Shown here piece after piece: positions 1-58,407 of a stretch of 64,000 nucleotides of DNA (position 1 is the stretch's first letter; each line of letters starts with the position of its first letter). Source of the stretch: Methanomassiliicoccaceae archaeon (GTDB taxonomy: Archaea; Thermoplasmatota; Thermoplasmata; Methanomassiliicoccales; UBA472); assembly GCA_963751645.1 (NCBI GenBank), contig CAVVVD010000008.1, positions 85,914 through 149,913 on the forward strand, read 5' to 3'. The translations under genes and the position numbers were made by a program. The notes below the pieces were generated by a model. That model had not been told where the DNA came from, ran no database searches, and saw only the letters and a list, made by a program, of their open reading frames with translations.

Positions 1-1902
1 TTAATGAGACCGTTGCGTGGGCTCAGGCTTTGGCTCTGCACCGATCATGTCATCGTCTGCGGCATGGGAAGGATCGGGTCCCATTTCGCGAGAGCTATGA
101 GCGAGGACGGCCAGGTCGTGGTCGTTGACAAAGGCCATGTCATCACGCTGGACGATGAGGCGATGAGAGGCAATATCATACAGGTCCATGGTAACGCCAC
201 TGACGAAAAGGTCCTGCGAAGGGCTGGTATCAAACGAGCCATGTACGTGATCACCGCACTAGAGGATGATAGCGCCAATGGCGAGATCGCGGTACAAGCA
301 CGCCGCATTGTCAAGGACCAGACCCGCGAAACCCTCACCTGCTTTGTCCATGTTCAGGATCAGAACCTCTGCGAGGTCCTGCGGGTAAACGAATACAACT
401 CAGATAACCCATCGATAAGGTTGGAGTTCTATAATGTCATTGAGAACGGTGTTAGGACCATCCTCAGTGAGTTCCCGGCATTCCAGGAAGGCAGCTTGCA
501 AAAGGACGGACCGATAAGGATGGTGGTCATCGGACTCGATGACGTCGGGAGTGAGCTGGTGCTCAGGGCTGCGAAGAGGTGGTGGCCTCGATACCAAGCC
601 ACTGAGGAACGTCTTCAGATGGTGCTGGTGGACTCCGATGTGAGTGCGGCCTTAGAGTTCATGTGCGCGCGCCATCCCAACCTGAGGCGCGCTTGCACCT
701 TCGAGCCTATCGCCATGGATGTCAAGAAGCTCAAGGTAGCCAATGATGAGGAGTTAGGGTGGTTAATCTCCGACAATCCATCTTGCATCTATATCTGCGC
801 CCCAAACGACAGCGAAGGGTTATCCCTGGCCTTCATCCTGCGCAAGAAGTTGGGTGATGAAGGAGCGCCGATAGTGGTCCGCATGAACTCGGACTCGGAG
901 CTAGCGGAGTTGCTGGGGAATGAGGGGAGGAACGCTGGATGGGACGATGTTTATCCGTTCGGCTTCTGGGACCGTACTTGCACCAAGGCCTTGATCCAAT
1001 ATGGAAGCCGGGAGGTGATGGGTCAGGCCATCCATGAGGAATATTGCCTGGAGCAGCAGGCTAGAGACATTCCGACCGATGCCTCCTATAGGTCATGGGA
1101 CGAGCTGAGCGAGGAACTGAGGCAATCGAACCGCTCTCAGGCGGACCACATCATTGTCAAGGCGAGGGCCATAGGTTGTAGAATAGAGACGCTCACGGAT
1201 TGGGGCTATGATCATAGTGCCCTAACCCCGTACGAGGTCCATAAGCTATCCAGGATGGAGCATGACCGGTGGTGCAAAGAGAAGCTCAGAAAGGGATGGC
1301 GCTATGGAAAGGTCCGGGACGATGCCCATAAGGTACACGACGACCTGTGTCCCTGGAAGGAGCTTTCTGACGAGGCCAAGTACAAGGACATCGCCACCGT
1401 CAAGAAAATTCCGAGGACTCTGGCCCGGGTGGACCTGAGGCTAGTGCACCAGAACATGATGTTACAGGTAGCCAAGGCCTTGTTGATGGAAAATATAAGG
1501 CGGTCGGAGAAAAGGAAAGACGGCGATCAACACATTTCCTTAGCTTGGAATGAGATTGACGAAGTTAAAAAAGCACTATTCCTGGATGAGGCAAGGGAGA
1601 TCATTAATTGCTGTGAGGGCATAGAATGCGGGATCTCCGGCCGTGGGTCGGTGGAGGAGGAGCTTGGAGCCTTGAACCCGAATGAGGTCGAGCTCGTAAA
1701 CGGGAGATTCAGTGCAAACATGGCCAAGAAAGGCAGGGAGGGTCTCGCGGGGGACGCCTCCACATGGCCCATGATTCTTTCCATAATGGACCTGGCGATA
1801 TTCCGTTATGAGGATGCGAGGAAACTAATGGAAGGGGATAGGGAGGCGATGATGATGGCCTTCACTGCAAGCGAGTTGCAGGGGCCGTTCCTCCCAAGGT
1901 GA
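1..1902 (+). CDS. RCK/TrkA_N Rossmann + tandem RyR-domain protein, copy 1 (5' end off-window)
   Basis: The ORF is open to the window edge. It has a GxGxxG Rossmann motif 'VIVCGMGRIGSHF' and a second Rossmann-like 'MVVIGLDDVGSEL'. Two RyR-type repeats follow ('HEEYCLEQQAR..WDELSEELRQSNRSQADHI' and 'MEHDRWCKEKLRKGWRYGKVRDDAHKVHDDLCPWKELSDEAKYKD'). It aligns from about residue 100 of the downstream paralog, so the TM N-terminus probably lies upstream of the window. Confidence 0.8.
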   Translation, partial: LMRPLRGLRLWLCTDHVIVCGMGRIGSHFARAMSEDGQVVVVDKGHVITLDDEAMRGNIIQVHGNATDEKVLRRAGIKRAMYVITALEDDSANGEIAVQARRIVKDQTRETLTCFVHVQDQNLCEVLRVNEYNSDNPSIRLEFYNVIENGVRTILSEFPAFQEGSLQKDGPIRMVVIGLDDVGSELVLRAAKRWWPRYQATEERLQMVLVDSDVSAALEFMCARHPNLRRACTFEPIAMDVKKLKVANDEELGWLISDNPSCIYICAPNDSEGLSLAFILRKKLGDEGAPIVVRMNSDSELAELLGNEGRNAGWDDVYPFGFWDRTCTKALIQYGSREVMGQAIHEEYCLEQQARDIPTDASYRSWDELSEELRQSNRSQADHIIVKARAIGCRIETLTDWGYDHSALTPYEVHKLSRMEHDRWCKEKLRKGWRYGKVRDDAHKVHDDLCPWKELSDEAKYKDIATVKKIPRTLARVDLRLVHQNMMLQVAKALLMENIRRSEKRKDGDQHISLAWNEIDEVKKALFLDEAREIINCCEGIECGISGRGSVEEELGALNPNEVELVNGRFSANMAKKGREGLAGDASTWPMILSIMDLAIFRYEDARKLMEGDREAMMMAFTASELQGPFLPR

Positions 1903-1935
1903 ACAAAGGCTGTAGGGCTTGCTGAAACTACCAGG

Positions 1936-2232
1936 TCACCGATCCTTTATGGTCTTCGGTCTGTAGAACAACATGATGAGGAAAAAAATGATGGCAACAT
2001 AGATGAGGGCGACGGGTTCAATTATATAAAATATTACTATAATAATTGATGCCACCAGACCGGCCACCAAGGCCTGTCGCACATCGTCCAAGGTCAGGAG
2101 GGCGGTGACTATGATCGCCAGGATCATGCTGGCAACGAACAATATCGTGTTGTCTGCAACGAAATCGAGGAGCAATGCCTCTGCGCCAGCGCCGGCCACC
2201 AAGATATACGAGATTTTTGTGAGGACGCCCAT
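1936..2232 (-). CDS. small integral membrane protein (about 3 TM helices), hypothetical
   Basis: This is a 98-aa ORF made almost entirely of hydrophobic helices ('ILFVASMILAIIVTALL', 'LVASIIIVIFYII', 'ALIYVAIIFFLIMLF'). It sits between the two RyR paralogs on the opposite strand. I recognise no family. Confidence 0.5.
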   Translation of the reverse strand: MGVLTKISYILVAGAGAEALLLDFVADNTILFVASMILAIIVTALLTLDDVRQALVAGLVASIIIVIFYIIEPVALIYVAIIFFLIMLFYRPKTIKDR

Positions 2233-2431
2233 CGACCGAACTATTGGTCTGTCGCTTAATATTAATCATTGGCTTGATCAAATCCAGAGGCGCCGACCAA
2301 GAGTTGTCTGTAACCTAAAATTATGTATGTCTCGGTAAAAATACTATAATCACGACGCCATATCGCACCTTCAGATAGAGAGGTCAGGAGTTGATGCCCT
2401 GAGGAAATGGTCGAGGAACATTCCACGGAAG

Positions 2432-4620
2432 GTGCTTTCCGTCGCGGGAGCTGTCTATGGTGATGTTGGCATCTACGTCTTTACTGTCGCCTGGGTATTC
2501 ACCGTAATACTCGGATACTGGGGATTCTATCAGTACTACCAATTGAGAGGAGTGACCGTATCCTCCTCGGACCTGTTATATGACACTCTCCAGCTCTTCT
2601 GGTTCAAAGGCGGGGAACTGGATTGGTCGAATGGCTATGTGTTGGCCCTCGACATCGCGCGCTGGGCTGCCATCATCGTTATCTATTGGGCGATGGTGCT
2701 GATATTGGCCAGGGCCTTCGTGGCGCCATTGCGCAAACTGAGGTTGTGGCTCTGCTCCGATCACGTCATAGTATGCGGCGCCGACAGGATCGGTTCCAGA
2801 TTTGCAAAGACCCTCAGCAAGGATTACCAGGTCGTGGTCGTTGTGTCGGACCAGAGCATCGGGTCCCTTGGCGGTCTAAGGGATTCCGGAGTTATTATTG
2901 TGGAAGGGAACGCCGAGGACGAGAAGGTGCTCCGGAGGGCGGGCATCGACCGGGCACGATTCATCATCCCATCAATGGGGGAGGACAGTGCCAACGCCGA
3001 GGTCGCTATCCAGGCCAGAAGGATGGTCGAAGGGCGATCACGCGATCCCCTTACATGCTTCCTCCATGTTATGGACCCCGAGCTCTGTGAGGTCCTCAGA
3101 GTCAACGAATACAATGCCGGGAACCCCTCGATGCGGCTTGAGTTCTACAACATCTTCGAGAACGGCGCCCGGACCATCTTGAACGAATTCCCAGCCTTCC
3201 AGGAAGGAAGCGTTGGGACACATCCATCGACGCGTATCCTTGTCATAGGTCTCGACGACGTCGGCCAAGGTCTGGTGGTCAGGGCTGTAAAAAGGTGGTG
3301 GTCTCATTATCAAGCGACGAATCAGCGGCTCTCCCTGGTTCTGGTGGATAAGGATGTCGACTCCGTGCTGAAGTCCGTGCGCGCGCGCTATCCCGACCTC
3401 GATAGCGCGTGCACCTTCGAGTGCATCGCCATGGATATTCATATGTTCAAGGTGGCCAAGGACGAAGAGCTCAATAGGCTGACCTCAACGCCTCCATCAT
3501 ACGTATACATCTGTGCTCCCGATGACAGTGATGGGCTCTCCCTGGCCCTCATGCTGCGCAGACGGTTGGGGAACGAGGGGGCGCCGATCGTTGTACGATT
3601 GAACGCAGACTCGAAACCAGCCGCCCTGCTCGGCGAGGAGGGTAGGAACGCCGGGCTGAGCAATGTCTACACATTCGGCTTCTGGGACCGTACTTGCACC
3701 AAGGCCTTGATCCAATATGGAAGCCGGGAGGTGATGGGTCAGGCCATCCATGAGGAGTATTGCCTGGAGCAGCAGGCCAGAGGCAGTCCCACCCAGGCCT
3801 CCAAGACGCCATGGGACGACCTGAGCGAGGAGCTGAGGGAGTCCAACCGTGCTCAGGCCGACCACATCATCGCCAAGGCAAAGGCCATCGGGTGCAGGAT
3901 CGACGCACTCACGGACTGGGCCTCTCACCCTTATTCGCTCACACCCTACGAGGTCCATAAGCTCTCCAGGTTGGAGCATGACAGATGGTGCCAGGAGAGG
4001 ACCAGGAAGGGATGGAGGTATGGAAATGTCACGGGACGATGCGATGAAGGTCCACGACGACCTTCGTCCTTGGGAAGAGCTATCCGCTGAAGCCAAGTAC
4101 AAGGACATCTCCACGGTGAAGAAGATCCCAGGGACACTGGCAAGGGTGGACCTCCGGCTCGCGAGGAAGGATATGACCCTTAGCATCGGCAAGGCTCTAT
4201 TGATGGACAAAATGAGTCGGGCCTCACGGCAAAAAGATGGCGACGTCGACGTCTCTTCCGTATGGAGGGGGATGCTGGATGTGGAGAGGACGCGGTACCT
4301 GGACGAGGCGAAGGCTATGATCGATTGCCTTGGGGAGATCGACTGTGGCATCTCCGGTCGAGGGATCGGTGGAGGAGGAGCTCGTCGTCTTAGGCCCAGC
4401 GGAAGCCGAGCGTGCGAACTTGAAATACCGTTCATTGATGGCTGATAAAGGTGAGGATGTCCTCGCGGGGGACGCCTCCACATGGCCCATGATTCTTTCC
4501 ATAATGGACCTGGCGATATTCCGTTATGAGGATGCGAGGAAACTAATGGAAGTGGATAGGGAGGCGATGATGATGGCCTTCGGCCCAGGCGAACTAGAGG
4601 AACCGTTCCTCCATCATTGA
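2432..4620 (+). pseudogene. 2-TM channel-like + RCK/TrkA_N + tandem RyR-domain protein, copy 2, with two +1 frameshifts
   Basis: The N-terminus has hydrophobic helices flanking 'LYDTLQLFWF', followed by 'VIVCGADRIGSRF'. The protein continues through three frames (ORFs 2432.., 3849.., 4330..). Alignment to copy 1 shows one extra 'a' at about 4031 and another at about 4365. The C-terminus 'GDASTWPMILSIMDLAIFRYEDARKLME' is nearly identical to copy 1. Confidence 0.8.
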
Positions 4621-4704
4621 ACAAGGGCGGCGTGACCCATGAGATCGGTCGACCTCATAAACATGATTGTCTAGCTCAACGCATGGAAGCAATTAATATC
4701 ACTT

Positions 4705-5710
4705 ATGAGCATTTTTCAATCTATGACGGAGGATCGTCACGTCTTCATCAGCCATGTCGAGGAGGATGCACCTCTAGCCCTCGCTCTCGCTGAGAGGTTA
4801 GAGAAAAAGGGCTATTCCACATGGTACTATGAGCGGGATACCTTGCCCGGCTTCTCGTACCTAGAACAGACCGGGAAGGCCGTGGAGAGATGCAAAGCCT
4901 TCCTTCTGATCATCTCCAAGGATTCATTGGGCTCCCATCAGGTAGACTTGGAACTGGAGAGGGCCCATGAGGAGTCGAAGACCATCATCCCCGTCCGTTA
5001 CCATGTCTCCCATCCCGAGTTCCAGAACAGGCGCCAGTTTGGAGGCAGATCATCGGTACCAGGACCTCCATCGAGGTCGATATGGGCAATGTCGACCTGG
5101 CATCGGACCGGATAGGAGAGGCTTTGAAGTTGATGGCCATTCCTGCCAACGCACCGCTTCCAGTGCAACCAACACCGGCGCCGGACCTTTCCCTACCCAA
5201 GTTCTGCCGGCAATGCGGTCGGCCGTACCAGCAGAGCGAGACCATCTGCGGGAAATGTGGGGATCGAGGAAGCCGATCGAATCGGCTAGGCACGTGGTCA
5301 AGGAGCATCTCGGATTGGTCGAGTACGATGAAGGTTATGTGGTGGACCCCAGTTCCAAGCTCATATGGCAGCGAGATGGTGATGACGTATTTTGTGATTA
5401 CGCGGATTCTGTAGCTAGATGCAGGAACATTCGGCTCGGAGGTTTCTCTGATTGGCGACTACCAACAAAAGAGGAGTTGACCCACCTGGCACGGTACGGA
5501 TATGCTGACCTCCAGAGAGTATTCCCGACCATTCAGAGGAGGAATTACTGGGCACTGACCTCTCCGGCAGAGGTGCCTTTCGCCCAGAACGCTCAGGACG
5601 ACGTCGGCCTCACTGTGGACCTCGATCCCAGCAATAGCAGCTTTGGGGACGTTGTGACATTTTTCAAGAGGTCGAGATACTGCGTAAAGGCGGTGCGAAG
5701 ATATCGCTGA
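4705..5710 (+). pseudogene. TIR domain - zinc ribbon - DUF1566 (Lcl-like) protein, with two -1 frameshifts
   Basis: The N-terminus 'HVFISHVEEDAPLALALAERLEKKGYSTWYYERD..AFLLIISKDSLGSHQVDLELERA' is TIR_2-like with a candidate catalytic Glu. The middle has 'CRQCGRPYQQSETICGKCG'. The C-terminus 'LIWQRDG..GFSDWRLPTKEELTHLA' is the DUF1566 signature. The frame changes at about 5035 and about 5270 (ORFs 4705.., 5082.., 4967..). Confidence 0.75.
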
Positions 5711-6025: not shown

Positions 6026-9000
6026 ATGAATGGGATATCCTCTGTGAAAGCCCTCGACAAATGTCAACGCGACAGTATACGCGACAATGTTCGATGCCGG
6101 AGGAGGGCTAGTCCCCTCCTCGTGTTAGTCATTTTCGTCACCTTATTGCTACTTTCTTCATGCTGGGCATACCGCTTCCACCGTCAATGCGGATAACTTG
6201 AACGATGCCTCGCCACCTATGGATGTCGAATATGCGGAGAATTATGATGGTTCTACCGATGAAACGGTCGGATCGGGAGCTGACATCCCTAGTTACCACG
6301 AGGCGATGCGCTTCTTCATCGAGAACAAAGGCCAGGTCGACGGTGAGGTCAAGTTCGTAGCGGTCACAGAGTTTGGGAAGGTGCTGTTCTACGACTCGAA
6401 GGTCCAGTACCTTCTTGAACGATATGAGGACAGGAATCTTACCGGCATGGACGTGATTACTCTGACCTTTCCATCATCTTCGATCGTTTCTCCTCAAGGG
6501 ATGGGGCTTCTACCGCACCATACCAACTATTTCGTCGGCGACCCAAGCGATTGGGTGACGGATGTGGGGAACTACCGCTCAATAATATACGAGGACCTAT
6601 GGCCTGGCATAGACCTCACATATAGGTTCAGCGAGAAGGGACTGAAGTACGAGTTCAAGGTCGACCCGTACGTCCTGGAACAGCGGATCGGCATCCGTGT
6701 CGAGGGGGCCGCCCTTCAAAGCGAACGCACTTACCTTACCTTCGCCACTGGCCATGGCTCCCTTGTGGACAGCGACCTCATTGCCTGGCAGGATTCGCCC
6801 GAGGAGATGCTCCCCGTGGCATTCGTCATCAAGGGCGATGTCATCACCTTTAAGACCGAGGGACGGGACCTTTCCAAAGGGCCTTCTGATTGATCCCTTG
6901 ATCTATTCCACCTTTTTTGGTGGCACCGGATATGACTTCAGCCAAGGCATCGCCGTTGACAGCGCTGGTAACATATACGTGACCGGTATAACCTCGTCCT
7001 CCGATTTCCCCACCAATGGTCCTTTGTATTCGGATATAGCAGGCGGGAGCGATGCTTTCGTCCTCAAGCTCAACGCTGCCGGGGACGATCTCATCTATTC
7101 GACCTTCATCGGGGGAAGTGGTGAAGATTATGGTCAGGACATCTCTGTGGACGATGGAGGAAATGCCTACATCTCAGGCTACACCACCTCCACCGACTTT
7201 CCGACCAATGTTCCGATAATATCGGACTTCGGTGGCGGTACATACGACGCTTTCGTCCTGAAGCTCAGTCCCTCTGGCAGCACTCTGGTCTATTCGACCT
7301 ACCTTGGGGGGGAAGCCGAAGACATCGGGAACAATATCGCCATAGATCCTTTGGGAAATGCCTACGTGACCGGTCACACCAATTCCACCGACTTCCCTTG
7401 TATCAACCCGCTCCAGACTGTGAACAGGGGTTTACAACGATGCTTTCATGCTCAAGGTCAACGTCGCCGGTACCGCCTTCATCTATTCGACGTACATCGG
7501 AGGAGGCGATAATGACTTTGGCATCGGCATCATGGCTGATAGTGACGGTAACGCCTATGTCACTGGATACACCTATTCCACCGACTTCCCAACGGTCAAT
7601 CCCATCCAACCCATCAACGCAGGGGTCTGCGACGTCTTCATCCTCAAGCTCAATTCCGCTGGCAGCGACCTGAACTACTCGACATACATAGGAGGGAGCG
7701 GGGAAGATAATGGCCATGGGATCGACATAGATGTCAGCGGCAACGCCTATGTCACCGGTTATACCGAATCCACCGACTTCATCACTACATTCGGTACGAT
7801 ACAGAGGACAAAAGCTGGTGGGGGGGACTCGTTCGTTCTGAAGATAAACCCGCTGGGGAATGGACGGGTCTATTCCACCTTCCTTGGGGGTGGGGGTGAT
7901 GAAATTGCCATCGGCATCGCAGTGGACGGGATAGGCAACGCCTATGTCACCGGTTATACCGAATCCACAGACTTCCATACCTCCCATCCATTCCAGGCCA
8001 TCAACTCCGGGGAATATGACGCATTCCTGTCGAAGATAAATGTGGCAGGTAACGTTCTATTGCTCTCGACCTACTTCGGCGGAGAATATAACGATGCTGC
8101 GTATAGTATCGCGCTGGATGCTCGAGGTGGGGTACTTGTCGCCGGAGGGACCTATTCCATTGATTTCCCCACCTTGAATGCTTTCCAACCCGATTACTCG
8201 GGCGATTGTGACGCTTTCATCCTCAAGTTCGATGAGGAGGGGAGCGGTCTACATTATGCGACATATGTGGGAGGGGGTGGGGATGATGAGGGACAAGCCA
8301 TTTCCCTTGACGCGATCGGCAACGTCTACGTCACCGGTTACACCTACTCCACCGATTTCCCTACCTCTGCTGGGTCTTTTCAGGATACCTTTGCCGGGGA
8401 GAGGGACGTCTTCGTCCTCAAGCTCAACGCTGATGGCAGTTCCCTCATCTACTCCACGTATATAGGAGGGGAATGGGATGAGAACGGCATCGATATCGCG
8501 GTCGATGATCTTGGCAATGCATATGTGACCGGTTATACCAATTCAACCGACTTCCCTGTATCTAACCCGCTGCAGGCTGCGAACAGGGGCTACTACGATG
8601 CCTTCGTGCTCAAGCTCAACCCATCAGGCAACGGGCTTCTCTATTCGACTTACGTGGGAGGTTTGGACTCTGATGCCGCCTATAGCATCGACTTCGATGA
8701 GGATGGCAACGTCTTTGTCACCGGTTACACCTATTCCAGAGACTTCCCCATCGTCCTTCCATCACTCCAAACGATCTATGCTGGTGAGGGGGATGCCTTC
8801 GTTCTTAAGGTCGATCCCACTGGTAACAGTCTTGTCTACTCAACGTTCATAGGGGGAAAGGGGGACGATGTCGGCAGCAGCATCGCCGTGGATGCGATGG
8901 GAAACGCTTACATCGCTGGCTACACCAATTCCACCGACTTCCCGATCGCCAATCCGCTCCAGGCACTGTACGGAGGTGCATATGATGCTATCATCCTCAA

Positions 9001-10414
9001 GCTCAATCCCACTGGTACCGCCCTGATCTACTCGACCTTCATAGGAGGAGGCTTGGACGATATGGGCATCGATATCGCGATCGATGATATTGGTAACGCA
9101 TATGTGACCGGTTATACCAATTCCACCGACTTCCCCACCTCTGACCCGTTCCAAGCGGTGAAAGGGAGCATGTTCGATGCCTTCGTCCTCAAACTGAATG
9201 CAATTGGCAGCACGCTCATCTATTCGACGTTTTTGGGGGGGAGCGAGGATGATATCGGATACAGCATAGCCATCGATGAAAGTGGTAACATCTATGTCAC
9301 TGGCTACACCTTTTCCGTCGACTTCCCCACGGCCACACCGCTGCAACCTGAGACCGGGGGGGATTACGATGCCTTCGTCCTCAAACTAAATGCAGCTGGC
9401 AGCATGCTCATCTACTCGACATATCTGGGAGGGAGCGACTCAGATTTCGGTCTAGGGATCGCATTGGGCGTTGACGGTTATACATACATCACAGGTAGCA
9501 CCTATTCCATCGATTTCCCTACAACCATTCCGCTTCAATCGATGAATGGGGGTTACTATGATGCCTTCATCCTCAAGCTTGGGTCGTTCAACGTTCCTTC
9601 GGTACCGCTCGACCCTACCGCCATCCCTGGCGATGGAACGGTCATCCTCAATTGGTCCGTGCCAACGAACAATGGAGGCTATCCCATCGATTATTACATC
9701 GTTTACCGGGATGGAAATGACGTAGGCCATCCCGGAGGAACATCGATCACATTCACTGGTCTGACGAATGGTGTGACCTACGCTTTCTCCGTGGCAGCGC
9801 ACAATTCCCTTGGTTCGGTCCCTTCACTCCCACCATCTCGGCCACCCCTTCGGTCCAAGCGGTCCTCCCAGGCCTCCCGATCGACCTCATCCGTCACCGC
9901 TGGGGATGGCATGGTCACATTAAGCTGGAGTGCCCCTACTAGTGGAGGAGGTGGGATCGATTACTACATCGTATTCAGCAACGGGGAGGATGTCAAGCAC
10001 TCGACCTCGTTGAGCTGCGAGGTGGACGGTCTGACCAATGGTGTTGAGTACTCCTTCACGGTCGCCGCACACAATGTCGCCGGGACCGGTCCCGGGACAG
10101 CGGTCGAGCAAGCCACGCCAAAGGCAAGCTCCTCAGATGGTTCTGGGGGATTCGACATGATGATAATCCTGGGTGTGGTCGTGGCCATTGCCGCCGCTGT
10201 TCTCGTGTTTGTTTTCGTGGTCAAGGGGAGGAGGTCGAAGGCATCGATGCCCTCTAAACCAGCTGAACCGATGCCGCCCATACCACCGATGACATCGACG
10301 CCCCCACCGCTCCCCCCTATCCAACCAACCGTTGAAACGATAAGATACTGCCCTTGGTGCGGGCAGAAAACAGGCGAGGAGTTCTGTGGCAATTGTGGCA
10401 GGAGGGTAGAATGA
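6026..10414 (+). pseudogene. giant surface protein with signal anchor, SBBP beta-propeller repeats, 2 FN3 domains, TM, Pro-rich tail and C-terminal zinc ribbon (frameshifted)
   Basis: An ATG at 6026 leads into 'RRRASPLLVLVIFVTLLLLSS'. Next comes 'FIENKGQVDGEVKF..NYFVGDPSDW' (the N-domain typical of SBBP proteins). More than 20 copies of the unit 'YSTYxGGxxxDxGxxIAxDxxGNAYVTGYTxSTDFPT..DAFVLKLN' follow. There are two FN3 domains ('DYYIVYRDG', 'DYYIVFSNG'), a TM helix 'ILGVVVAIAAAVLVFVFVV', and the end 'YCPWCGQKTGEEFCGNCG'. The frame changes at about 6160, about 6885 and about 7437. Confidence 0.8.
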
Positions 10415-13193: not shown

Positions 13194-13269
13194 TGGTGGA
13201 CAGCGCGGGATTTGAACCCGCGGCCTCCGCCTTGCGAAGGCGGCGATCTTCCAGCTGATCTAGCTGCCC
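13194..13269 (-). tRNA. tRNA-Ala (anticodon CGC), CCA encoded
   Basis: The reverse complement is GGGCAGCTAGATCAGCTGGAAGATCGCCGCCTTCGCAAGGCGGAGGCCGCGGGTTCAAATCCCGCGCTGTCCACCA. It folds into a full cloverleaf. The anticodon loop is TTCGCAA, with the G3:U70 identity pair and discriminator A73. Confidence 0.93.
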
Positions 13270-25537: not shown

Positions 25538-25627
25538 TGGCGCCGAGGGGGAGATTCGAACTCCCGTGGTACGGAGTACCACCAGCTCTCAAGGCTGGCG
25601 CCGTGATCCGGACTTAGCTACCTCGGC
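25538..25627 (-). tRNA. tRNA-Ser (anticodon UGA) with long variable arm, CCA encoded
   Basis: The reverse complement is GCCGAGGTAGCTAAGTCCGGATCACGGCGCCAGCCTTGAGAGCTGGTGGTACTCCGTACCACGGGAGTTCGAATCTCCCCCTCGGCGCCA. The acceptor pairs GCCGAGG/CCTCGGC. The anticodon loop is CTTGAGA, the variable stem is GGTAC/GTACC, and the discriminator is G73. Confidence 0.92.
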
Positions 25628-30999: not shown

Positions 31000-31449
31000 A
31001 CGAAACATTTTGGGCCGACCGGGAGGTCGGTCCTAGGAACTTATTATTTTCAAAATCAATGCAAATGCCGCACCCTTTTTCCTAATGATCGACCACCCCA
31101 CCCGTCTCACAATAGATCGAAGGACGTGTGGCAATGACCTTACCAGTCGCAAAAAGATAGAAAGGTTTAAAATGGAATGCGCCATTCGCCAGAACACAGG
31201 GGCCCATAGCTTAGCCTGGCTGGAGCGCCCGGCTGATAACCGGGAGGTCAAGAGTCCAAATCTCTTTGGGCCCACCATTTCCATCTGGCTCATTCACCAA
31301 AATGCCTTTCTGAGGGCATTTCACATTTCTTTGGTACTGGGCATAGATTTGCATCCCTTCCATCATGTCGGTCAGATCGAAGAGAAGCACTCGGTGATGT
31401 GGTTCATTCATTTTACAACTCATGCTAAAATTTAACAAAAACAATTTTT

Positions 31450-33457
31450 TCATTCTTTATCATTCGGCCTCAGACCCTCAGTGGTCTTCTCGTTCCTACA
31501 TATCTGCTTCCAGAACTCGATCCGTTCAATGGCCAGGGCGGTCTGGCTGGCGAAGGCGGCGATCAGTCGCTCCTGCTCCAACCTGATGATCGCCTCCTGC
31601 TCCTCGGGCTGGATGCCAATTACCCCTACGATCCCGTTCGGCGTTCGAAGAGGATAGTACCTCAACGCTGCCGAGGCCAGTGTGTCGGTGTCCTTTCCCG
31701 AGCTTATACCATTTTCATAGGTCCAATTGGCGGCGGTCATCTCCTTCTCGTCAAGGTTCAATCCACCGTTGGCATAGGCAACACTAAGCTGTTCCCTTTT
31801 AGGCAGGAGGTAGGCGGAACGGCAATTGCATGACCTCATGATGTGTCCGCTGACTGTCTCCAGCGCCACCTTCGTATCGTTGACGCTGGCAAGGTCCAAA
31901 CTCAGCGCATAAAGGGTCGAGGTGTAGTCATCCCGCCTCTGGGCGGCCATGGCATAGTCCTTCGCCCTGACCACTAGGAGGCTTATGACCACGCCCACGG
32001 TGAGGAACGCGGCGAAGGTGATGAGGTACTCCGTATCGCTGACCCGGAAGCTCAGGTCGAGGCGGGATGAAGAAGAAATCAAGACCAGGACGCTCACCCC
32101 CGCGGTGAAGATCGCGAACCACAGCCCCCATGTTATGGCGGCCACCACCACTCCGATCAGGTAGAGCATGACCAAGTTGGTCGATGAGATGTAAGGTTCG
32201 ACCAACACGGCTATGATGGTCAAGATCATGACCATCCACACCGTCAGGAAATAATGGTACTTGACCAGCGGCACCCTGGACCCTTCCTCGGGCTCCCCGG
32301 TTTCTTTCTCCGGTTTACCGAGACTGCTGATGATCAGAATGTCTATCGGCCCGGCTAGTCGCACGATCTGGTTGGCCACCGATCCGAAGACCAGCTCCTG
32401 CCATAAGGGACGGACGGGTCTGCCAACGATGATCCTGGTCACATTGTTCTTCTTGGCGAAGCGCACGACCTCCTCCGCGATGGCGACACCGAAGCTGGTG
32501 AAGGTCTTCGCCCCCATCTAGAGCCAGCTCCAATCCCCTCATGGCCTGCATCCTGTCCTTCCGGGACATGCGGTTGTGCGCCGGGGTTTCAACGTAAATG
32601 GCGTACCATTCCGCCTTGAGCTCGTCGGCCAGCCGACGTCCGGTCCGAATGAGCCGCTCGTTGAGGGTTTTGCTGTTACCGATGCATACCAGCAGTCTCT
32701 CTCCAGCTGGCCAGGGTCCCGGGATGGAGCGGGTCTGCATGTACTCCAGCATCTGTTCATCGATGTGCTCGGCGGCGCGTCGGAAGGTCATCTCCCGCAG
32801 TGCGATCAGATTGCCCTCGTTGAAGAATCGCTCAATGGCCACAGCCGCCTGGGCAGGGACGTAGACCTTGCCCTCCCTGAACCGTTGGATGAGCTCCATC
32901 GGGTGGCAGGTCCACGATCTTGATCTCGTCAGCTTCGTCCAGCACCGAATCGGGGATGGTCTCCTTGACCTTGATCCCAGAGATCTGTTCGACGGCATCG
33001 TTCATGCTCTCCAGATGCTGGATGTTGAGGGTGGTGTAGACGTCTATGCCGGCGGCAAGCAGCTCCTGTACGTCCTGGTACCGTTTGGTGTGACGGGAGC
33101 CGGGGGCATTGGTGTGCGCGAGCTCATCGACCAAGACCAGCTGTGGAGATCTGGCCAGCACGGCATCCAGGTCCACTCTTGCCGGGTTATCCCCCGGTAT
33201 GCGATCTCCGCTGAGGGATGGTCTCGAGACCGATCAAGCAGATCTTCGGTCTCCTTCCTTCCATGGGACTCGACGCAAGCGACCACCACATCCGTACCCT
33301 TCTTCGACTGATGCTGGGCATCCTCCAGCATGGTATAGGTCTTGCCCACCCCGGCCGAGTAACCAAGGAATACCTTCAGCTTCCCCTCGACTGCTTCTCG
33401 CTCCTCCGCCTCCACTTGTTTGAGCAGCTCGTCGGGGTTCGGTCGTACGTATTCCAC
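31450..33457 (-). pseudogene. kdpD: KdpD-type K+ sensor (KdpD-N + USP + TM + GAF) without a kinase domain, 3 frameshifts
   Basis: It contains 'GKLKVFLGYSAGVGKTYTML', 'LVLVDELAHTNAPGSRHTKRYQDVQELLAAGIDVYTTLNIQHLES', 'GKVYVPAQAAVAIERFF' and 'LLVCIGNSKT'. A TM block and a GAF-like end follow. It stops without HisKA/HATPase domains. The frame changes at about 33180, about 32900 and about 32520. Confidence 0.85.
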
Positions 33458-33460
33458 GTC

Positions 33461-35164
33461 TCATCCCCCCCGTATGAGGGACTCGACGATCGGTCCGAGA
33501 ACCAATGTAAGGAAAAAGCTCAGCGCCCCTATCAAGCACTACCACGCCGATCAGCCAGAAGATGAAGAGCGGAGTATGGGTGGGCAGGGTCCCGGGACTC
33601 ACCGGCACGGGCTTCTTCGATGCCAACGACCCGGCCAGGGCCAGGGTCAGGACCATACCGGGAACCGGCCGATGAGCATGGCGAGGGCCAGGATCGTGTT
33701 GTAGAACGGCGTGTTGTTGACAAGGCCGGCGAAGGCGCTGCCATTGTTGTTGGCGGCGGAGCTGAACGCGTAAAGGATCTCGGTGAACCCATGCGGGCCG
33801 GGATTGGAGACCGCCGACCTGCCCTCGGGAATCATGACCGCGATGGCCACACCGATCAGTATCGTGACGATGGGGATGAGGATGATGATCGTGCACAGTC
33901 TTCATCTCATAGGGGCCGATCTTCTTCCCCAGATAGTCGGGCATGCGGCCGATCATGAGGCCGGCCACGAACACCGCGATGATCACGAAGATCGAGCATA
34001 CCATACAGCCCGGACCCGACCCCCCGAACACCACCTCACCGAATTGGATCAGGAACAGGGGCGACATCCCCCCAGCGACGTATAGGAATCGTGCATGGAA
34101 TTCACCGCCCCACAGGATGTCGCCGTCGTCGAGACGGCGAAGAGGCTGGAGGGCACCACCCCGAACCTCACCTCCTTCCCCTCCATGTTCCTCCTGGCTG
34201 AATTGGGTGGCGATCTGGGATACCCCGATTTCGTCAAAGGTGGGGTTTCCGGTCTGTTCGGCCCAAATGGCAATGCCGATGAAGACGACGAAGATCATCA
34301 CCATCGCGATGAGCAGCGCGATCCCTGCCGCCGGTCGCGCACCATGTTCCCGAAGACCAAGCACAGGCCGACCGGGATCATCAGGATGGCCAGTATCTCC
34401 AACAGGTCGGTGAAGGGCGTAGGGTTCTCGAACGGATGGGCAGAGTTGGCGTTGAAGAATCCCCCACCGTTGGTGCCCAGTTCCTTGATCGCCTCCTGGG
34501 ACGCCACAGGTCCCACGGGAATGGTCTGTTCGGTGACGGTGAGACCATTGGAATCAGTCACTGGTTGAAGCAATTGCCCGGTGATCGGCCCATCCAACGT
34601 CTGGACCGCACCCTGGGAGACCAGGACCAGGGCCAGTATGAAACAGATGAACAGGATGAGAGTGGCCTTGGTGATATCCACCCAGAAGTTGCCGAGGTCC
34701 TTGGTCTTCCTCTCGCGGATGCCCCGGATCAGGGCCATCAGGACGGCAAGGCCGGTCGCCGCGGACAGGAAGTTCTGCACGGTGAGCCCGACCATCTGGG
34801 TGAAGTAGCTCAGGGTGGTCTCTCCGCCATAGGATTGCCAGTTGGTGTTGGTGACGAAGCTGACCGCGGTGTTGAAGGCCAGGTCCGGAGACACCGTCCC
34901 CTGGTCCTGGGGGTTGAAGGGCAGGTACTGGCTGGAGCATGATCACGCCCATAAGGAAGAGGATGCCGATGACGTTGAACAACAGAAGCGACAAGGCATA
35001 CATCTTCCAGTCCATCCCTTCGCCCTCCAGCTTGGCCGGACTATAGATGAACGCCTCGACTCCGACCATGGTCGGGCGATCCTTCCTGGTCTTTCGTCGT
35101 AGACGTCGTGAACAGCCTGCACGTACCAGGCGGCGATGATCAGGATGAAGAAGAAGAATGTCAT
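33461..35164 (-). pseudogene. kdpA: K+-transporting ATPase subunit KdpA, at least 8 frameshifts
   Basis: Segments match E. coli KdpA closely: '[41 protein letters not shown]', '[31 protein letters not shown]', '[30 protein letters not shown]', '[28 protein letters not shown]' and 'GTLPTH'. The pieces are distributed over two minus-strand frames. Confidence 0.9.
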
Positions 35165-35868
35165 GAAAGCCAGTCGTGGGTGGACATGCCAAGGACCCTG
35201 TCGTCGGCCGTTGGACTGTGCGGCTCGGCGGAGGTCCCGCCCCCTCCTTGAGCCTGTTCATCGTCCAGGGCCAGGTTCAGTCCAGCACATTGACGGTCTT
35301 CTCCCCTAGAATGCCGAATTGCCTGTCATCGGTGTTCTGGTCGATGAGATCGCGGACCTGGTCCTCGCTCATGTTCCTGCTCCCGCCACCCGGTGGCAGT
35401 TGATATATGGCGCTGGCCACACTGATGTCGGGGTCCAGGCCGCTTCCGGAGGCGGTGACCAGGTCGGAGGGTATTGGCTGGGTGTTGTTCGGATCCGCGG
35501 CGTGAAGTGCATCGATCCTGTGCTTGCACCATCTCGTCCAAGGCCGGATTGTTTGGCCCATAGTTCGTCCCGGTGGATAGGCTGGCATTGTATTGGAAGC
35601 CGGGAGTGGCGGAGGGCCGGCCCCAGAAGTAGCTCGGGTCGTTGAACGGTTGACCGATGAGCTCGGAGCCGACGACGGTCCCGTTGACGCTCGATTGGCT
35701 GCCGTTGGCCTGATGCGGGAAGAGCACCTGGGCCACGCCCGTAACCATTAGGGGATAGGCGAGACCGGTCACCAGAGCGAGGACGAGGAAGATGATCGAG
35801 GCCGGTCGAGCCTGTATCCTTAACGCTCTCCAAGACCGACCTGGTGAGGTCCGCTGATCGGTCCGCAT
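35161..35868 (-). pseudogene. kdpC: K+-transporting ATPase subunit KdpC, 2 frameshifts plus one compensated pair
   Basis: It contains 'GLAYPLMVTGVAQVLFPHQANGS', 'LIGQPFNDPSYFWGRPSAT', 'DLVTASGSGLDPDIS' and 'VNVLD/LNLALD'. The terminal TGA overlaps the kdpA ATG (ATGA). Confidence 0.8.
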
Positions 35869-35892
35869 CTTTCCTGATTCGGAAATGTCCTC

Positions 35893-38022
35893 TCAGGCCC
35901 CCACCCCCAATAGCGAACCAAGGCCATATCGATCAGCTTGATCCCGATGAACGGGACGATGAGACCACCCGAGGCCGTAGATGAGCAGATTGTTCCGTAG
36001 CGCCTCTGCGGCGGTCAGGGGCACGATACTTGACCCCTTTCAACGCCAGCGGGATGAGAGAACGATGATGATGGCGTTGAATATGACCGCGGAAAGTATG
36101 GCGGCCTGCAGGCCCATGAAGTTAAGGTCGCCCAGCGCCGGATAGTATGCTGGCGAATGCGGCGGGGATGATGGCGAAATACTTCGCCACGTCGTTCGTG
36201 ATGCTGAACGTAGTGAGAGCCCCTCTGGTCATGAGGAGCTGCTTTCCCGTCTCCACGATCTCTATCAGCTTCGTCGGGTTGCTGTCCAGGTCGATCATGT
36301 TGGCGGCCTCTCTGGCGGGCTGCGTTCCGCTGTTCATCGCCACCGCCACATCTGCCTGGGCCAATGCCGGTGCGTCATTCGTTCCGTCTCCGGTCATAGC
36401 CACCAACCGGCCCTCCGCCTGATACTGCCGGATGAGGCTCAGCTTGTTCTCTGGGGTGGCCTCGGCCAGATAATCGTCCACACCCGCCTCTGCCGCTATC
36501 GCCGCCGCGGTCAGCTTGTTGTCGCCCGTGATCATGACCGTCTTGATGCCCATGCGACGGAGCTGGGCGAACCTCTCCTTCATTCCGGGCTTTACGACGT
36601 CCTTGAGGTGGATGACCCCAACGGCCTTCGTAATTGAGCGCTATGACCAAGGGAGTGCCACCTGAACGGGCGATCCGGTCCACCTCATGGGCAAGCTTCT
36701 TCGGGATCTCGTTGCCCGAGGCTTTGACGTACCTAGATATGGCATCGGCGGCCCCCTTGCGGATGACCCGGTCCCCATAGTCCACCCCGCTCATCCTGGT
36801 CTGGGCGGTGAACGGAATGAAGCGCATCTCCGGATGCGCCTGTAGACCCGTTTCTCCATCCTTGATGCCATATTTCTCTGTCGCCAAGTTGACGATGCTA
36901 CGACCCTCCGGTGTCTCATCGGATAGGGACGACAGCAAGGCGAGCTCGGCGACGGTCTCCGCACTTTCCCCCTCGACCGGGATGATCTCGACCGCCTGGC
37001 GATTCCCCAGGGTGATGGTCCCGGTCTTATCCAGTAGCAGAACGTCCACGTCGCCGGCAGCCTCGATGGCCTGTCCAGAGAAGGTGATGACGTTCTTCTG
37101 GATGAGGCGGTCCATACCGGCGATGCCGATGGCACTGAGCAGACCCGCCGATGGTGGTGGGGGCCAGGCAGACCAACAAGGCGATGATGACGGTAAGTGT
37201 GATCGGGCTTCCCTGCCCGGTTATGAAGACGCTGTAGATGGAGAACGGGAGCAAGGTCGCACAGACAACGATGAAGATGATCGTCAGTCCTATCAGAAGG
37301 GTGTTCAGAGCGATCTCGTTGGGCGTCCTCTGTCGTTTGGCACCCTCGATCAACGAGATCATCTTGTCCAGAAAACCCTCTCCGGGATCGGATGATGCTT
37401 TGATAATCAACCAGTCCGATAATATGCGGGTCCCACCGGTCACCGCGCTGCGGTCCCCACCGGATTCCCTGACGACCGGAGCGCTCTCACCAGTGATGGC
37501 GCTCTCATCTACTGATGCCGCACCTACCACCACCTCACCGTCCACAGGGATGGAGTCCCCGGTTTGGCAGTAGAACAGGTCACCCTTGCGAAGCTCTGAG
37601 GAGGAGGTCATGAAGTAATCGGAATCAGCAGGCCTTGTCCCTTTAGTTATCACGAAGCCTTCATTCATCTTCCTGGCCTCGGTGGTCGTCCGCATATTCC
37701 GGAGGGCGTCTGCCTGGGCCTTCCCTCTGCCCTCTGCCAGAGCTTCGGAATAATTGGCGAAGATGACCGTGAACCAGAGCCAGATGGATATAAGACCGAT
37801 GGACAGAGCCGATTGCTCGCCCTGACCAAGGAGTGCCTGGAAGAACAACAGTGTGGTAATAGCGCTGCCCACCTCCACTGTGAACATCACTGGGTTCCTG
37901 ATGGTATGACGAGGATCCAACTTCCATATGGCTTGAGCCATGGCCCAACGTCTGATCCGCTTCTGTTCCTCCTTGTCGATAGACCGCGAGCGTTTCCTTG
38001 ATACCTTCTGCCCTTCTTCCAT
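35893..38022 (-). pseudogene. kdpB: K+-transporting P-type ATPase subunit KdpB, at least 6 frameshifts
   Basis: It contains 'GDSIPVDGEVVVGAASVDESAITGESAPV', 'DVLLLDKTGTITLGNRQ' (phosphorylation site DKTGT), '[21 protein letters not shown]', '[23 protein letters not shown]' and 'IPLALKGVKYR'. The exact 3' end is uncertain (TGA at 35893 after 'LGVGA'). Confidence 0.9.
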
Positions 38023-38766
38023 TGCCTCACCAGTGAATTAAGAGGCCCGATCTGGCTTTAAGCCGGACATCATAAATCACTTACCTCAGGATATATGTTC
38101 GTATTAAGAACTGTTAAACAATTAGATATTTGTACAAAATAGATTGATTATTTCGTCATTCGTAGCATATAAGACGTGAATATCACTTATTATTGGCAGG
38201 CAATGTCGATCAATAAAACGGATAAAGAATCCTAATGAGGAAAAAATTGCAAAGAACAAAGGAAGGACGTGCCATCACGACTGCCATCGAAGAGGCTTTT
38301 CTTGCGTCTTTCCAGTCATTTTCGTGTAACAAAATCACTTTGAGCCCACCACTTTTTCTGAATTAACACGAAAGGTCATTTTTCGGAACTGTCGTTATTT
38401 TTTATAATTCAGTCATCTTGTCTTGCCATTAGGTCATATCTGATCGCCTAGGTACAATGCGAGATACTATCGCGACATGATGATGCCTTCATGCACGATC
38501 ATCTCGGAGATCGTCTCGGAGGGCGTCATGAGCGCCCATTGCCTTCGCCTAAAGGTCCGTCTGAGCGTGTGGTTCGGAGGGCTCCTCTAGTTGTTTTCTC
38601 GGTCAGAAATCCTGATCCTTCCACCTGATATTGGTGGTGTTAAAATACAGTAAGGAAATTTCCTATCAAATCTAAAGTTAAGGTAATTCTTGTCTTACAG
38701 GCATAAATTTGATATAGTCCTCTTTATCAATTTTGAGGTATGACGATTTCATTGGGAAAAAACAAT

Positions 38767-38859
38767 ATGGCTAGGGTTGGAATACTTGGGGTGATAATCA
38801 TCATCATAATCGTTCTGGTGGTACTCGCTATTTTCGGAATTTTTGGGTTGCACCTGTGA
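38767..38859 (+). CDS. possible 30-aa hydrophobic micropeptide
   Basis: The peptide is MARVGILGVIIIIIIVLVVLAIFGIFGLHL. It lies in the AT-rich spacer. No homology or RBS could be assessed. Confidence 0.25.
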   Translation: MARVGILGVIIIIIIVLVVLAIFGIFGLHL

Positions 38860-38949
38860 AAAATTCGCTCACCAACCCCCATTTAGGATATGTGACAAAC
38901 ACAATATCCTCATATAGTAGGTTTAACAGAGCTAATAAAATGGGTTTCT

Positions 38950-39093
38950 ATGGCAATATCAATGAATTGGGGAGCTTTAGGACTATTGTCGGTCGTAGCC
39001 TTCTTAGTAGGCTGGTGGATATTCGGTTTGCTATGGGCGATTGTGATAGCCATTGTTGTATTAATTTTGATGGGGATTCTTAAATTTAAATAG
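38950..39093 (+). CDS. possible 47-aa two-TM micropeptide
   Basis: The peptide is MAISMNWGALGLLSVVAFLVGWWIFGLLWAIVIAIVVLILMGILKFK. It looks more protein-like than the two overlapping >=60-aa track ORFs. Confidence 0.3.
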   Translation: MAISMNWGALGLLSVVAFLVGWWIFGLLWAIVIAIVVLILMGILKFK

Positions 39094-39611
39094 AAAATGC
39101 CCATAGAGCTTGATATTGTCGGGGGTCAAAGTTTGTCCCAACATGGAATGAGTTCTTTCCCCTGAATTTTATTCAATGCCCCTTTCTTCATGGAACGATA
39201 AAGAATAGAAAAGGTTCTGCTTGGTTTCCAGTATCATTGCGACAGAAATTTTACGCGAAAGGGATCTTTATTTTTGATTAAGTCGGTCGCATTGTACCAA
39301 TCTCTTTGGGTCTACCATTCCATTGGCATAACTCATTTAGCACCGGTTGCGGTACAAGGATGATGCAGACTGATCTGGTCGCTTCCCGCGATCAAGTCAG
39401 TTTGGTATTGAGACAATCCAGAAGCTTAAGATAAATAACATATAATTGACACTTGAGCCAATTCAGCATTGACTAGGCAATATTTCGTTTCTTTTTCATT
39501 ACAATGGGTTTCTGTGGAACCAAGGAGTTCCTCTTGATTATTTGTCCTCTTATCAAGCTTCTACTTAGCTAAAACAATTAAAATGCGACTCTGATATGGC
39601 CTAGGCATAAC

Positions 39612-57848: not shown

Positions 57849-57869
57849 CATCATCCTGTATGCGACAAC

Positions 57870-58179: not shown

Positions 58180-58407
58180 ACTCATTTATCCATGCCCCGA
58201 GATGGGACCAACAACGAATTGATTATTGACGCGGGAACGGTACCACCATTGAAATTGAAGGTGGCGATGTCCAACTCATTTCCCATGTAGCAAAATTCGC
58301 TTAGAATGGTTTGGTATCGGATCAACAAATTTGAACGATCATTCTGATTGAAACTTAAAAGCTGGAAGAAGGCCTTGTGAAAGAGGTCTCGCATCAAGCC
58401 ATAACTA

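Follow-up and report, generated by a model that had tools for sequence, protein, structure and literature searches.

TIR genes beside RCK-RyR channel-like genes in archaea and bacteria: a candidate Thoeris-like module

Does a TIR gene that directly follows genes for channel-like membrane proteins belong with them, and if so, what could the proteins do together? The question is raised by the first 5,710 nucleotides (nt) of a 64,000-nt stretch of DNA from a Methanomassiliicoccaceae archaeon (contig CAVVVD010000008.1, positions 85,914 to 149,913; hereafter the window). Two paralogous genes encode proteins that combine a channel-like segment of two transmembrane (TM) helices with TrkA_N/RCK Rossmann domains and RyR domains (RCK-RyR proteins), and a TIR gene lies 3′ of the second on the same strand. 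The original prediction, made from the window's sequence, was that the TIR protein generates an NAD-derived signal and that the RCK-RyR proteins respond to it as membrane effectors. Using gene neighbourhoods, profile searches and structure prediction, we lean slightly towards the view that the locus is a two-component Thoeris-like module in which the TIR product acts on a RyR/RCK-gated channel.

Linkage of TIR and RCK-RyR genes

Within the Methanomassiliicoccaceae, a TIR-Lcl_C gene stands immediately 3′ of an RCK-RyR gene in all five genomes recovered, and the pair is kept in 6 of 6 loci. The synteny persists at channel identities as low as 46%, a value taken from tblastn pieces of the fragmented gene of locus L009. 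On the 1.4-Mb contig of locus L001 every gene of the locus is intact, in the order RCK-RyR (747 amino acids, aa), a 98-aa open reading frame (ORF) on the opposite strand, RCK-RyR (710 aa), TIR_2-Lcl_C (329 aa) and SBBP (1471 aa). Loci L003, L004 and L009 each have a single channel copy without the 98-aa ORF, which therefore falls outside the conserved unit. The combination of TIR, zinc ribbon and Lcl_C in one protein was found in this clade only (14 database matches).

The original prediction expected TIR genes to be enriched next to TrkA_N-plus-RyR genes in other genomes, and this is what we observe. We scanned one genome per species with an 11-sequence query, obtaining 341 genomes with a relative, and retrieved the best 80 loci from this set with flanks of up to 10 kb, 76 of them from outside Methanomassiliicoccaceae. 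Across these 76 loci TIR_2 is the commonest Pfam family among the immediate neighbours on both sides (10/74 downstream, 10/65 upstream). When matches to a TIR hidden Markov model (HMM) built for this analysis were tabulated per gene position, TIR genes made up 17 of 139 genes at ±1 and 3 of 315 genes at least four genes away (odds ratio 14.5, Fisher p = 4e-7), with the rate declining via ±2 and ±3 to about 1% at that distance. Thirteen of the 17 TIR genes at ±1 are co-stranded with the channel gene; the spacing, gap or overlap, is mostly below 250 bp, and the gaps between stop-to-stop ORFs are short or negative. In total, 21 of the 76 loci have a TIR gene within two genes, as do 13 of the 42 in which at least two genes flank both sides.

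The TIR-positive bacteria belong to Chloroflexota/Anaerolineae, Gemmatimonadota, Candidatus Brocadia, Bacteroidales, Actinomycetes, Methylococcales, Syntrophomonadaceae and Abditibacteriaceae, and Methanoregula is the TIR-positive archaeon beyond Methanomassiliicoccaceae. On a neighbour-joining tree of the channel proteins, these loci are scattered across every major branch. In Methanoregula sp. UBA247 the TIR + RCK-RyR pair occurs twice, at a distance of a few kb (locus L076, 4908-7331 and 10643-14101), and four loci have two or three TIR genes each (L010, L013, L047, L079). Because no third gene family recurs among the 128 other genes of the 21 TIR-positive loci, we take the conserved unit to be the TIR + RCK-RyR pair. 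With synteny in five related genomes and recurrence across phyla, this arrangement is far beyond chance.

Linkage beyond chance could still come without function, if RCK-RyR proteins were ordinary nucleotide-regulated cation channels and their adjacency to TIR genes a by-product of variable genome regions. About 70% of family members have no TIR gene nearby, a profile search shows how large the family is, with 6,127 cluster representatives at E<=1e-30 and end-to-end matches throughout the top 150, and the neighbourhoods are heterogeneous, as this explanation would have it. It sits poorly, however, with an enrichment that is confined to ±1/±2 and mostly co-stranded, with recurrence in many bacterial phyla, two archaeal lineages and every major clade of the tree, and with a Methanoregula pair that was duplicated as a unit. 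We consider it quite unlikely that the two genes have no functional link.

Two other kinds of gene recur beside RCK-RyR genes. AAA_16/AAA_22 (STAND-like) ATPases make up 9 of the 65 upstream neighbours, and large WD40 proteins are likewise recurrent; both may be alternative partners at loci without TIR.

Domains of the paired proteins and the proposed signal

The original prediction described the window's TIR gene as TIR / zinc-ribbon / DUF1566, and Pfam agrees, with TIR_2 at 1.3e-20, Lcl_C/DUF1566 at 1e-14 and a weak zinc ribbon (3e-4 to 6e-4). AbTir is the best solved-structure match of the TIR domain, and residue E83 aligns with the AbTir catalytic Glu, so that both a profile match and the catalytic residue are present. 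This Glu is invariant in its family and in 29 of 29 partners outside Methanomassiliicoccaceae. In one study, AbTir served to make 2′cADPR, an isomer of cyclic ADP-ribose (cADPR) (PMC13232231).

Around this head the partners differ widely. TIR_2 is N-terminal, rarely C-terminal, and is accompanied by WD40, TPR, FGE-sulfatase + TPR, SBP_bac_5 + InlB B-repeats, SH3_3, PEGA, PDZ, DUF5050 or unassigned regions, and in the archaeal partner by the zinc ribbon and Lcl_C. (In one TIR protein of L076, a TPR array precedes the TIR domain.) A hydropathy scan predicts a single TM helix directly after TIR, at residues ~150-220, in most bacterial partners (loci L010, L012, L013, L016, L019, L022, L030, L044, L047, L050, L054, L062, L072, L074 and L079), and no TM helix in the archaeal partner, which is predicted to be soluble. 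Because the helix directly follows TIR, the variable domain of the bacterial partners would lie outside the cell, in a topology like that of Toll-like receptors (TLRs). A conserved enzymatic head joined to hypervariable binding domains is, judged from these architectures, a sensor pattern. An AlphaFold2 (AF2) model of the TIR/Lcl_C protein had a mean pLDDT of 64, falling to about 50 in the C-terminal half, and was excluded from the fold search.

A sensor of this kind need not serve immunity. With the same wiring, an outward TIR sensor could read an environmental, cell-surface or kin cue, and its product could tune cation flux or membrane potential without killing. Such a role is suggested by the TM helix and typically extracytoplasmic domains of most bacterial partners (SBP_bac_5, SH3_3, PEGA, PDZ, DUF5050), by neighbourhoods without defence genes, and by hosts that are largely filamentous or environmental Chloroflexota. 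Yet the hypervariable sensors, the several TIR paralogues per locus and the patchy spread across phyla are hallmarks of conflict systems, the archaeal partner is soluble, and the experimentally tested TIR-plus-effector operons were all anti-phage in the literature covered here (Yirmiya et al., 10.64898/2025.12.03.692087). A non-immune signalling role is thus possible and in our judgement rather unlikely, and the most likely role of the module would be abortive infection or defence.

The candidate effector was modelled with AF2, as a monomer, on the intact orthologue P0002 with a 27-sequence alignment (mean pLDDT 86, pTM 0.79). Helices at residues 2-20, 27-38 and 50-89 form an outer helix, a short pore-helix-like element and, after a loop, a long inner helix; two Rossmann (RCK) domains follow, and then a helical two-repeat domain at about residues 413-560, whose secondary-structure pattern returns in a second domain at 563-710 in the model of the archaeal subfamily. 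The original prediction had proposed a Foldseek search of such a model, and the search against PDB recovered the channel-like, RCK and RyR R12 folds, with matches to the TrkA gating ring, full-length GsuK, full-length MthK, Slo1 and human RyR3 Repeat12 (R12). The best matches reach E of about 5e-9, full-length GsuK aligns over 588-596 columns, and human RyR3 848-1055 and a Bt-hRyR chimera align over 175-200 columns with TM scores (target) of 0.46-0.63. Thus the predicted order is a 2-TM pore and then RCK domains, as in MthK/GsuK, and the protein appears to be built like an RCK-gated channel, for which conduction and K+ selectivity are putative. In the sequence, the TrkA_N matches of the two paralogues (2.4e-21 in paralogue 1 and 8e-19) agree with this fold, and RCK1 has an intact GxGxxG and an acidic residue past beta2. 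In databases the family is labelled only 'NAD-binding protein', 'Kch' or 'hypothetical'.

The RyR part is recognised at sequence level as well. Pfam gives one RyR match per protein, in paralogue 1 at 9.6e-16 and 58.3 bits against a cut-off of 27.4, and in paralogue 2 broken by a frameshift into 24.8 + 16 bits, while phmmer searches against the repeats of RyR1-3 give 1e-13 to 1e-19. Two RyR repeats per protein had been predicted. The first is this Pfam match; the second, the C-terminal ~170 aa, has no HMM match and is visible as a recurring helix/strand pattern in the AF2 model that aligns with true second RyR units of homologues. Elsewhere in the family, P0062, P0063, P0068, P0069, P0153 and P0164 have three or four consecutive RyR matches, or a C-terminal HD or DUF3616 domain, and P0090 and P0193 have ~240-aa N-terminal extensions without a Pfam match.

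What could such a domain bind? Phage proteins of the RyR family PF02026 defeat Thoeris through its TIR-made signals, and in two 2026 preprints their RyR domains bind (nM) or hydrolyse 2′cADPR and 3′cADPR (PMC13232231; 10.64898/2026.06.04.730250), which gives the suggested link from TIR signal to RyR domain some experimental basis. The key residues of one of them, RyDEP, are H75, W78, H100 and D117, and its homologues are nanomolar sponges (PMC13232231); RyR Tad binds 1′′-3′ gcADPR with a KD of 43 nM through H129/W132, K147/H154 and K170/D171 (10.64898/2026.06.04.730250). Paralogue 1 has H421, W424, R439, H446, K462 and D463 at offsets 0, +3, +18, +25, +41 and +42, which are those of RyDEP and RyR Tad. 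Its phmmer alignment to PDB entry 35tm_A, a 139-aa 'Ryr domain-containing protein' that we presume to be RyDEP, is ungapped across the contact-residue stretch. Family-wide, H and W never vary and D is conserved in most members; a pocket census at fixed offsets, comparing TIR-linked with unlinked proteins, was confounded by one-residue loop indels, and only H..W and D were used.

These residues also invite a different assignment, in which the RyR domain would serve as an internal sponge or glycosidase that removes TIR signals as a brake or self-protection, with the effector encoded elsewhere. The His/Asp catalytic dyad of RyDEP is present (H421, D463), and the characterised prokaryote-associated RyR domains are all sponges or hydrolases. 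The dyad is no predictor of hydrolysis, however, because non-catalytic sponge-type homologues share it; a domain fused to a pore and RCK ring is what one expects in a ligand-gated channel rather than in a sponge, and no other candidate effector recurs in the loci. We find a brake or self-protection role very improbable.

A further reading does without a second messenger: the TIR domain would deplete NAD+, the RCK domains would sense the fall of NAD+ or the rise of ADP-ribose, and the RyR domain would be used otherwise, for example in ATP/ADP sensing. It draws on the intact nucleotide-binding features of RCK1, on GsuK, the closest full-length structural match, whose matched PDB entries were solved with NAD and ADP, on RyR3 R12 entries with ATP, ADP and AMP-PCP in their titles, and on the many bacterial TIRs that are plain NADases (discussed in 10.64898/2025.12.03.692087). 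Against it, the RyR unit rather than RCK alone is the invariant hallmark of the TIR-linked family and carries the contact set for cADPR isomers, and phage RyR domains bind gcADPR at nM affinity. Moreover, NAD+ loss would kill by itself, and the channel would therefore be superfluous. We regard NAD+ depletion without a messenger as unlikely.

The Thoeris-like reading that we prefer would work as follows. The TIR protein would be sensor and signal synthase at once, in archaea as a soluble protein of TIR, zinc ribbon and Lcl_C, and in bacteria mostly as a cytoplasmic TIR domain joined through a single TM helix to a hypervariable domain outside. As the membrane effector, the RCK-RyR protein would unite a GsuK/MthK-like 2-TM pore, its filter degenerate, with a ring of tandem RCK domains and with RyR R12-like domains. 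A trigger would engage the variable sensor domain, upon which TIR domains would assemble and make from NAD+ a nucleotide derived from ADP-ribose, for instance a cADPR isomer. This signal would be bound by the RyR domain of the RCK-RyR protein encoded next door, the tandem-RCK ring would relay the binding and open the pore, and the resulting ion leak would collapse the membrane potential.

Several observations weigh against this proposal. Only about 28-31% of RCK-RyR genes have a TIR gene within two genes, and classical Thoeris effectors are nearly always paired with TIR. None of the 10 unusually long family members is a TIR-RCK-RyR fusion, the 128 other genes of the TIR-positive loci form a mixed set, with ABC transporters and dehydrogenases among them, and show no defence-island context, and the close TIR relatives P0057 and P0058 have no RCK-RyR gene on their contigs, which at 2.6-4 kb are too short to decide pairing from the TIR side. 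In the pore, the K+ filter T-V-G-Y-G is absent from the sequence (...LQLFWFKGGELDWSNG...), its position being held by LQLFWFKGGELDW with the family consensus LQLFxLxSGxV; the Ion_trans_2 profile has no match at E<0.1, and model confidence is lowest in the filter loop, with pLDDT <50 at residues 42-44. In the RyR domain, the phosphate-contacting His (+25) is S, T or N in many homologues, and the ligand need not come from TIR, because R12 domains also bind ATP and ADP, as the PDB titles state. Finally, rather than being strictly co-transcribed with paralogue 2, the archaeal TIR gene is probably served by a separate and possibly leaderless promoter, because a TATA-like TTAATAT (4689-4695) precedes ATG 4723 by about 30 nt. 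Where the original prediction had named outcomes that would count against it, namely in co-occurrence, in the TIR domain with its Glu and in the frameshifts treated below, none came out that way.

Gene layout and frameshifts in the window

ORF reading and a Pfam scan give four genes within 1-5710 (Table 1). Paralogue 1 is 5′-truncated at the window edge, with its frame open up to base 1, and corresponds to residues 115-747 of the 747-aa L001 orthologue (79% identical). The domain order predicted for both paralogues (2-TM segment, RCK, second Rossmann domain, two RyR domains) holds overall; as the window edge cuts the gene, the 2-TM N-terminus of paralogue 1 lies outside the window and is visible solely in paralogue 2 and orthologues. 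Paralogue 2 is 93% identical to the intact P0001 and 85-88% to P0002/L002, while the two paralogues share about 64-66% protein and 74% DNA identity.

The start of paralogue 2 is either GTG 2432 or farther 5′ in a conserved open frame. At 2339-2431, as at ~9890-10000 of L001, an open, protein-conserved frame (GVDALRKWSRNIPRK...) precedes the first GTG, and this open stretch has no ATG, GTG or TTG back to the stop codon. The true start may thus lie farther 5′ or use a non-canonical codon. As for the TIR gene, the first ATG of its ORF is 84 nt past the paralogue-2 stop, and the probable start is ATG 4723, 102 nt past that stop, where homologues begin. The predicted strand and adjacency are therefore right, and the gap is one of these two values rather than 85 nt.

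Between the paralogues the original prediction placed a 3-TM micro-protein. This 98-aa ORF is real and conserved (87% identity to the L001 counterpart), lies on the opposite strand, and was found only where the RCK-RyR gene is tandemly duplicated, namely in L001, L002 and the P0007 contig. Neither Pfam nor PADLOC gives a match to it. As a third component of the module it is ruled out by its strand and its restricted distribution.

Table 1. Features of the window, with positions, strand and details
Feature	Position	Strand	Details
RCK-RyR paralogue 1	1..1902	+	RCK1 (TrkA_N), second Rossmann-like RCK, RyR R12-like domain, degenerate second R12-like domain
Paralogue 1, predicted RyR ligand-contact residues	1261..1389	+	H421, W424, R439, H446, K462, D463; codons H421 1261-1263, W424 1270-1272, H446 1336-1338, K462 and D463 1384-1389
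98-aa ORF, predicted 3-TM	1936..2232	-	between the RCK-RyR paralogues
RCK-RyR paralogue 2	2432..4620	+	full length, ~728 aa once repaired; read in three frames
Paralogue 2, TM1 / pore-helix-like / TM2	about 2432-2720	+	
Paralogue 2, RCK1	2765-3031	+	followed by RCK2, RyR, degenerate second R12-like domain
Paralogue 2, frameshift 1	4031..4035	+	+1, extra base in ...GTCACGGGACG...; intact homologues YG(K/A)VRDDAMKVHDD
Paralogue 2, frameshift 2	4362..4365	+	+1, extra base in ...CGAGGGATCGG...
TIR_2 / zinc-ribbon / Lcl_C (DUF1566) gene	4705..5710	+	read in three frames; 335 aa repaired
TIR domain	about 4741-5031	+	
Predicted catalytic Glu E83	4951..4953	+	codon GAA; aligns with AbTir '...WTNYELD'
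TIR gene, frameshift 1	5025..5031	+	-1 in ...AGGCGCCAGTT... (CCC read as CC); homologues FQNRRPLWRQIIG
TIR gene, zinc ribbon	about 5193-5261	+	
TIR gene, frameshift 2	5259..5263	+	-1 in G run ...TGTGGGGATCG...; homologues CGKCG(K/R)(S/P)R.PI.S
TIR gene, Lcl_C	about 5336-5698	+	
tRNA-Ala(CGC)	13194-13269	-	
tRNA-Ser(TGA)	25538-25627	-	
tRNA-Ile(GAT)	31200-31277	+	
Archaeal SRP RNA	57869-58180	+	160 bits

Two frameshifts each had been predicted in paralogue 2 and the TIR gene, and all four were located, every one within or beside a short G or C run. A one-base repair at each site in paralogue 2 gives a 728-aa protein that matches the intact P0001 across both sites; at the second, deleting one G yields GISGRGSVEEEL, the same as in paralogue 1 and P0001. 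Two 1-nt repairs in the TIR gene give a 335-aa protein that is 94% identical to the intact P0052 without gaps. Could these genes nevertheless be genuine pseudogenes of a decaying module? Two frameshifts per gene, some of them outside long homopolymers, would allow it, but every shifted segment is still open, with no additional stops, and 78-94% identical to intact orthologues.

Nor are the frameshifts confined to the two genes. The neighbouring SBBP gene has two shifts (~6878, ~7446) relative to its intact 1471-aa L001 orthologue, making six frameshifts in 3.5 kb and three genes. Split ORFs covering consecutive parts of one Pfam profile are seen at 31450-38022 (-), 45284-45856 (+) and 55722-56625 (-), where the genes so split are KdpA (in three pieces), KdpB, KdpD, an E1 dehydrogenase and an ABC ATPase. 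The 'MFD' metagenome-assembled genome (MAG) loci L002, L004 and L009, which we take to be from Nanopore assemblies, are similarly fragmented, and L003, from a k-mer, short-read assembly, is intact. Frameshifts are thus spread window-wide rather than specific to this locus, and intact orthologues of the two genes stand side by side in relatives. Because of the G/C runs, the near-identical intact orthologues and the similar splits elsewhere in the window, all four frameshifts can almost certainly be put down to indel errors of the assembly and not to gene decay, and we think it improbable that paralogue 2 and the TIR gene are pseudogenes.

Surface-protein, DUF2252 and sulfatase genes surround the archaeal locus. 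Directly 3′ of the TIR gene, the SBBP gene (6198-10414, +) encodes a giant surface protein of the beta-propeller / fn3 type that bears a TM helix at its C-terminus and a zinc ribbon, and is syntenic in L001 and L004. The SRP RNA and the three tRNA genes (Table 1) mark the window as part of an archaeal chromosome, and its nearest relatives, MAGs of Methanomassiliicoccaceae, put it in that family. Elsewhere in the window, two ORFs match PADLOC mad3 (best E 1e-21) and single ORFs weakly match AriA and HEC-02A; G+C content is 0.42 at 38001-40000 against 0.52-0.63 in the rest.

Relation to Thoeris, RCK channels and ryanodine receptors

Yirmiya et al. list eleven verified Thoeris types and 29 putative effector classes (10.64898/2025.12.03.692087). 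Like Thoeris of types I-XI, the pair described here places a TIR protein with a catalytic Glu beside a non-enzymatic or membrane effector, can have multiple TIR paralogues (as in multi-ThsB), and varies in its sensor parts. The Thoeris signals 2′/3′cADPR are moreover ligands of the very family, RyR/PF02026, that the effector carries here (PMC13232231; 10.64898/2026.06.04.730250; 10.64898/2025.12.03.692087). The pair differs from Thoeris in a TIR adjacency of only about 30%, in lacking a defence-island context and in being known from genes alone, and its partners are TIR_2 proteins, mostly membrane-anchored, whereas the Thoeris ThsB is small and cytosolic.

A PADLOC scan, which the original prediction had suggested, gave generic TIR-domain matches as the only window-wide matches for this system and zero matches for four RCK-RyR proteins, the latter speaking against membership in the Thoeris family as it is now modelled. 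RyR and TrkA are not named in the text and the part of the table covered of Yirmiya et al., Figure 1C and most of Table S1 lying outside that coverage. Full-text literature searches that paired Thoeris with RyR, or the RyR with the TIR domain, returned two phage preprints and otherwise unrelated papers, and the accessible parts of the preprints mention no cellular RyR-domain effector (PMC13232231; 10.64898/2026.06.04.730250). We do not assign the pair to a named Thoeris type, since it has neither a recognised effector family nor a defence-island setting; standing outside every named type, it looks like an apparently undescribed Thoeris-type module. If the proposal is true, it would add a large, taxonomically broad effector class to TIR signalling (~6,000 clusters at 50% identity) and extend TIR-effector pairs into methanogenic archaea.

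Type X Thoeris shares the idea of a TIR protein paired with a K+-channel-type pore effector. It consists of TIR and an 'ion channel' (ThsK; Bacillus sp. BH32, Vibrio) and is experimentally defensive, with its signal not known (10.64898/2025.12.03.692087). Candidates for this channel from plasmid records were type II (Macro) loci instead, and a type X locus (L084) was obtained by a metagenome scan. Its ThsK (3358-3984) has 208 aa, with a small N-terminal domain and a C-terminal Ion_trans_2 pore as its only Pfam domain, without RCK or RyR, and its TIR is ThsB_TIR PF08937. The proteins described here have 700-750 aa, TrkA_N and RyR, no Ion_trans_2 match and a TIR_2 partner; size, domains and TIR family thus rule out membership in type X.

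With GsuK, MthK and TrkA, RCK-RyR proteins share a layout in which RCK domains follow a 2-TM pore that includes a pore helix, and with GsuK and TrkA the tandem RCKs in one chain. They depart from GsuK/MthK in the replaced filter and in one to four C-terminal RyR R12-like domains. Those domains belong to PF02026, as do the phage proteins RyDEP and RyR Tad, in which the residues H, W, (K/R), H, K and D stand at the same spacing. On the phage side these are small, soluble homodimers that act in counter-defence, whereas the RyR domain here is cellular, forms an intramolecular two-repeat unit, is fused to a channel-like protein and is encoded beside TIR. Such a cellular counterpart would explain why phages carry RyR-domain sponges and glycosidases.

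The comparison reaches to animals on both sides of the pair. TLR-like partners, with ectodomain, TM helix and cytoplasmic TIR, would extend the bacteria-to-animal parallels of TIR immunity, and a TIR-family NAD+ cyclase upstream would be comparable to SARM1 in animal cADPR-RyR signalling. To our knowledge, direct binding of cADPR to RyR R12 is unproven, and the pair would offer a small, tractable prokaryotic system for the disputed direct gating of a cation channel by the cADPR family through RyR repeats. More tentatively still, and as a possibility we hold to be doubtful, the RyR repeat could be an ancient receptor module for TIR-made nucleotides of the cyclic ADP-ribose type; the pairs would then be a complete pathway from receptor through NAD-derived messenger to RyR-gated cation channel, a forerunner of animal cADPR-to-ryanodine-receptor signalling and a new Thoeris type. 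The pores are unrelated, a 2-TM RCK channel here as against the 6-TM RyR, and no Ca2+ role is implied; what the animal R12 domain shares with the RyR domain here is its sequence, its fold and its place on a cation channel.

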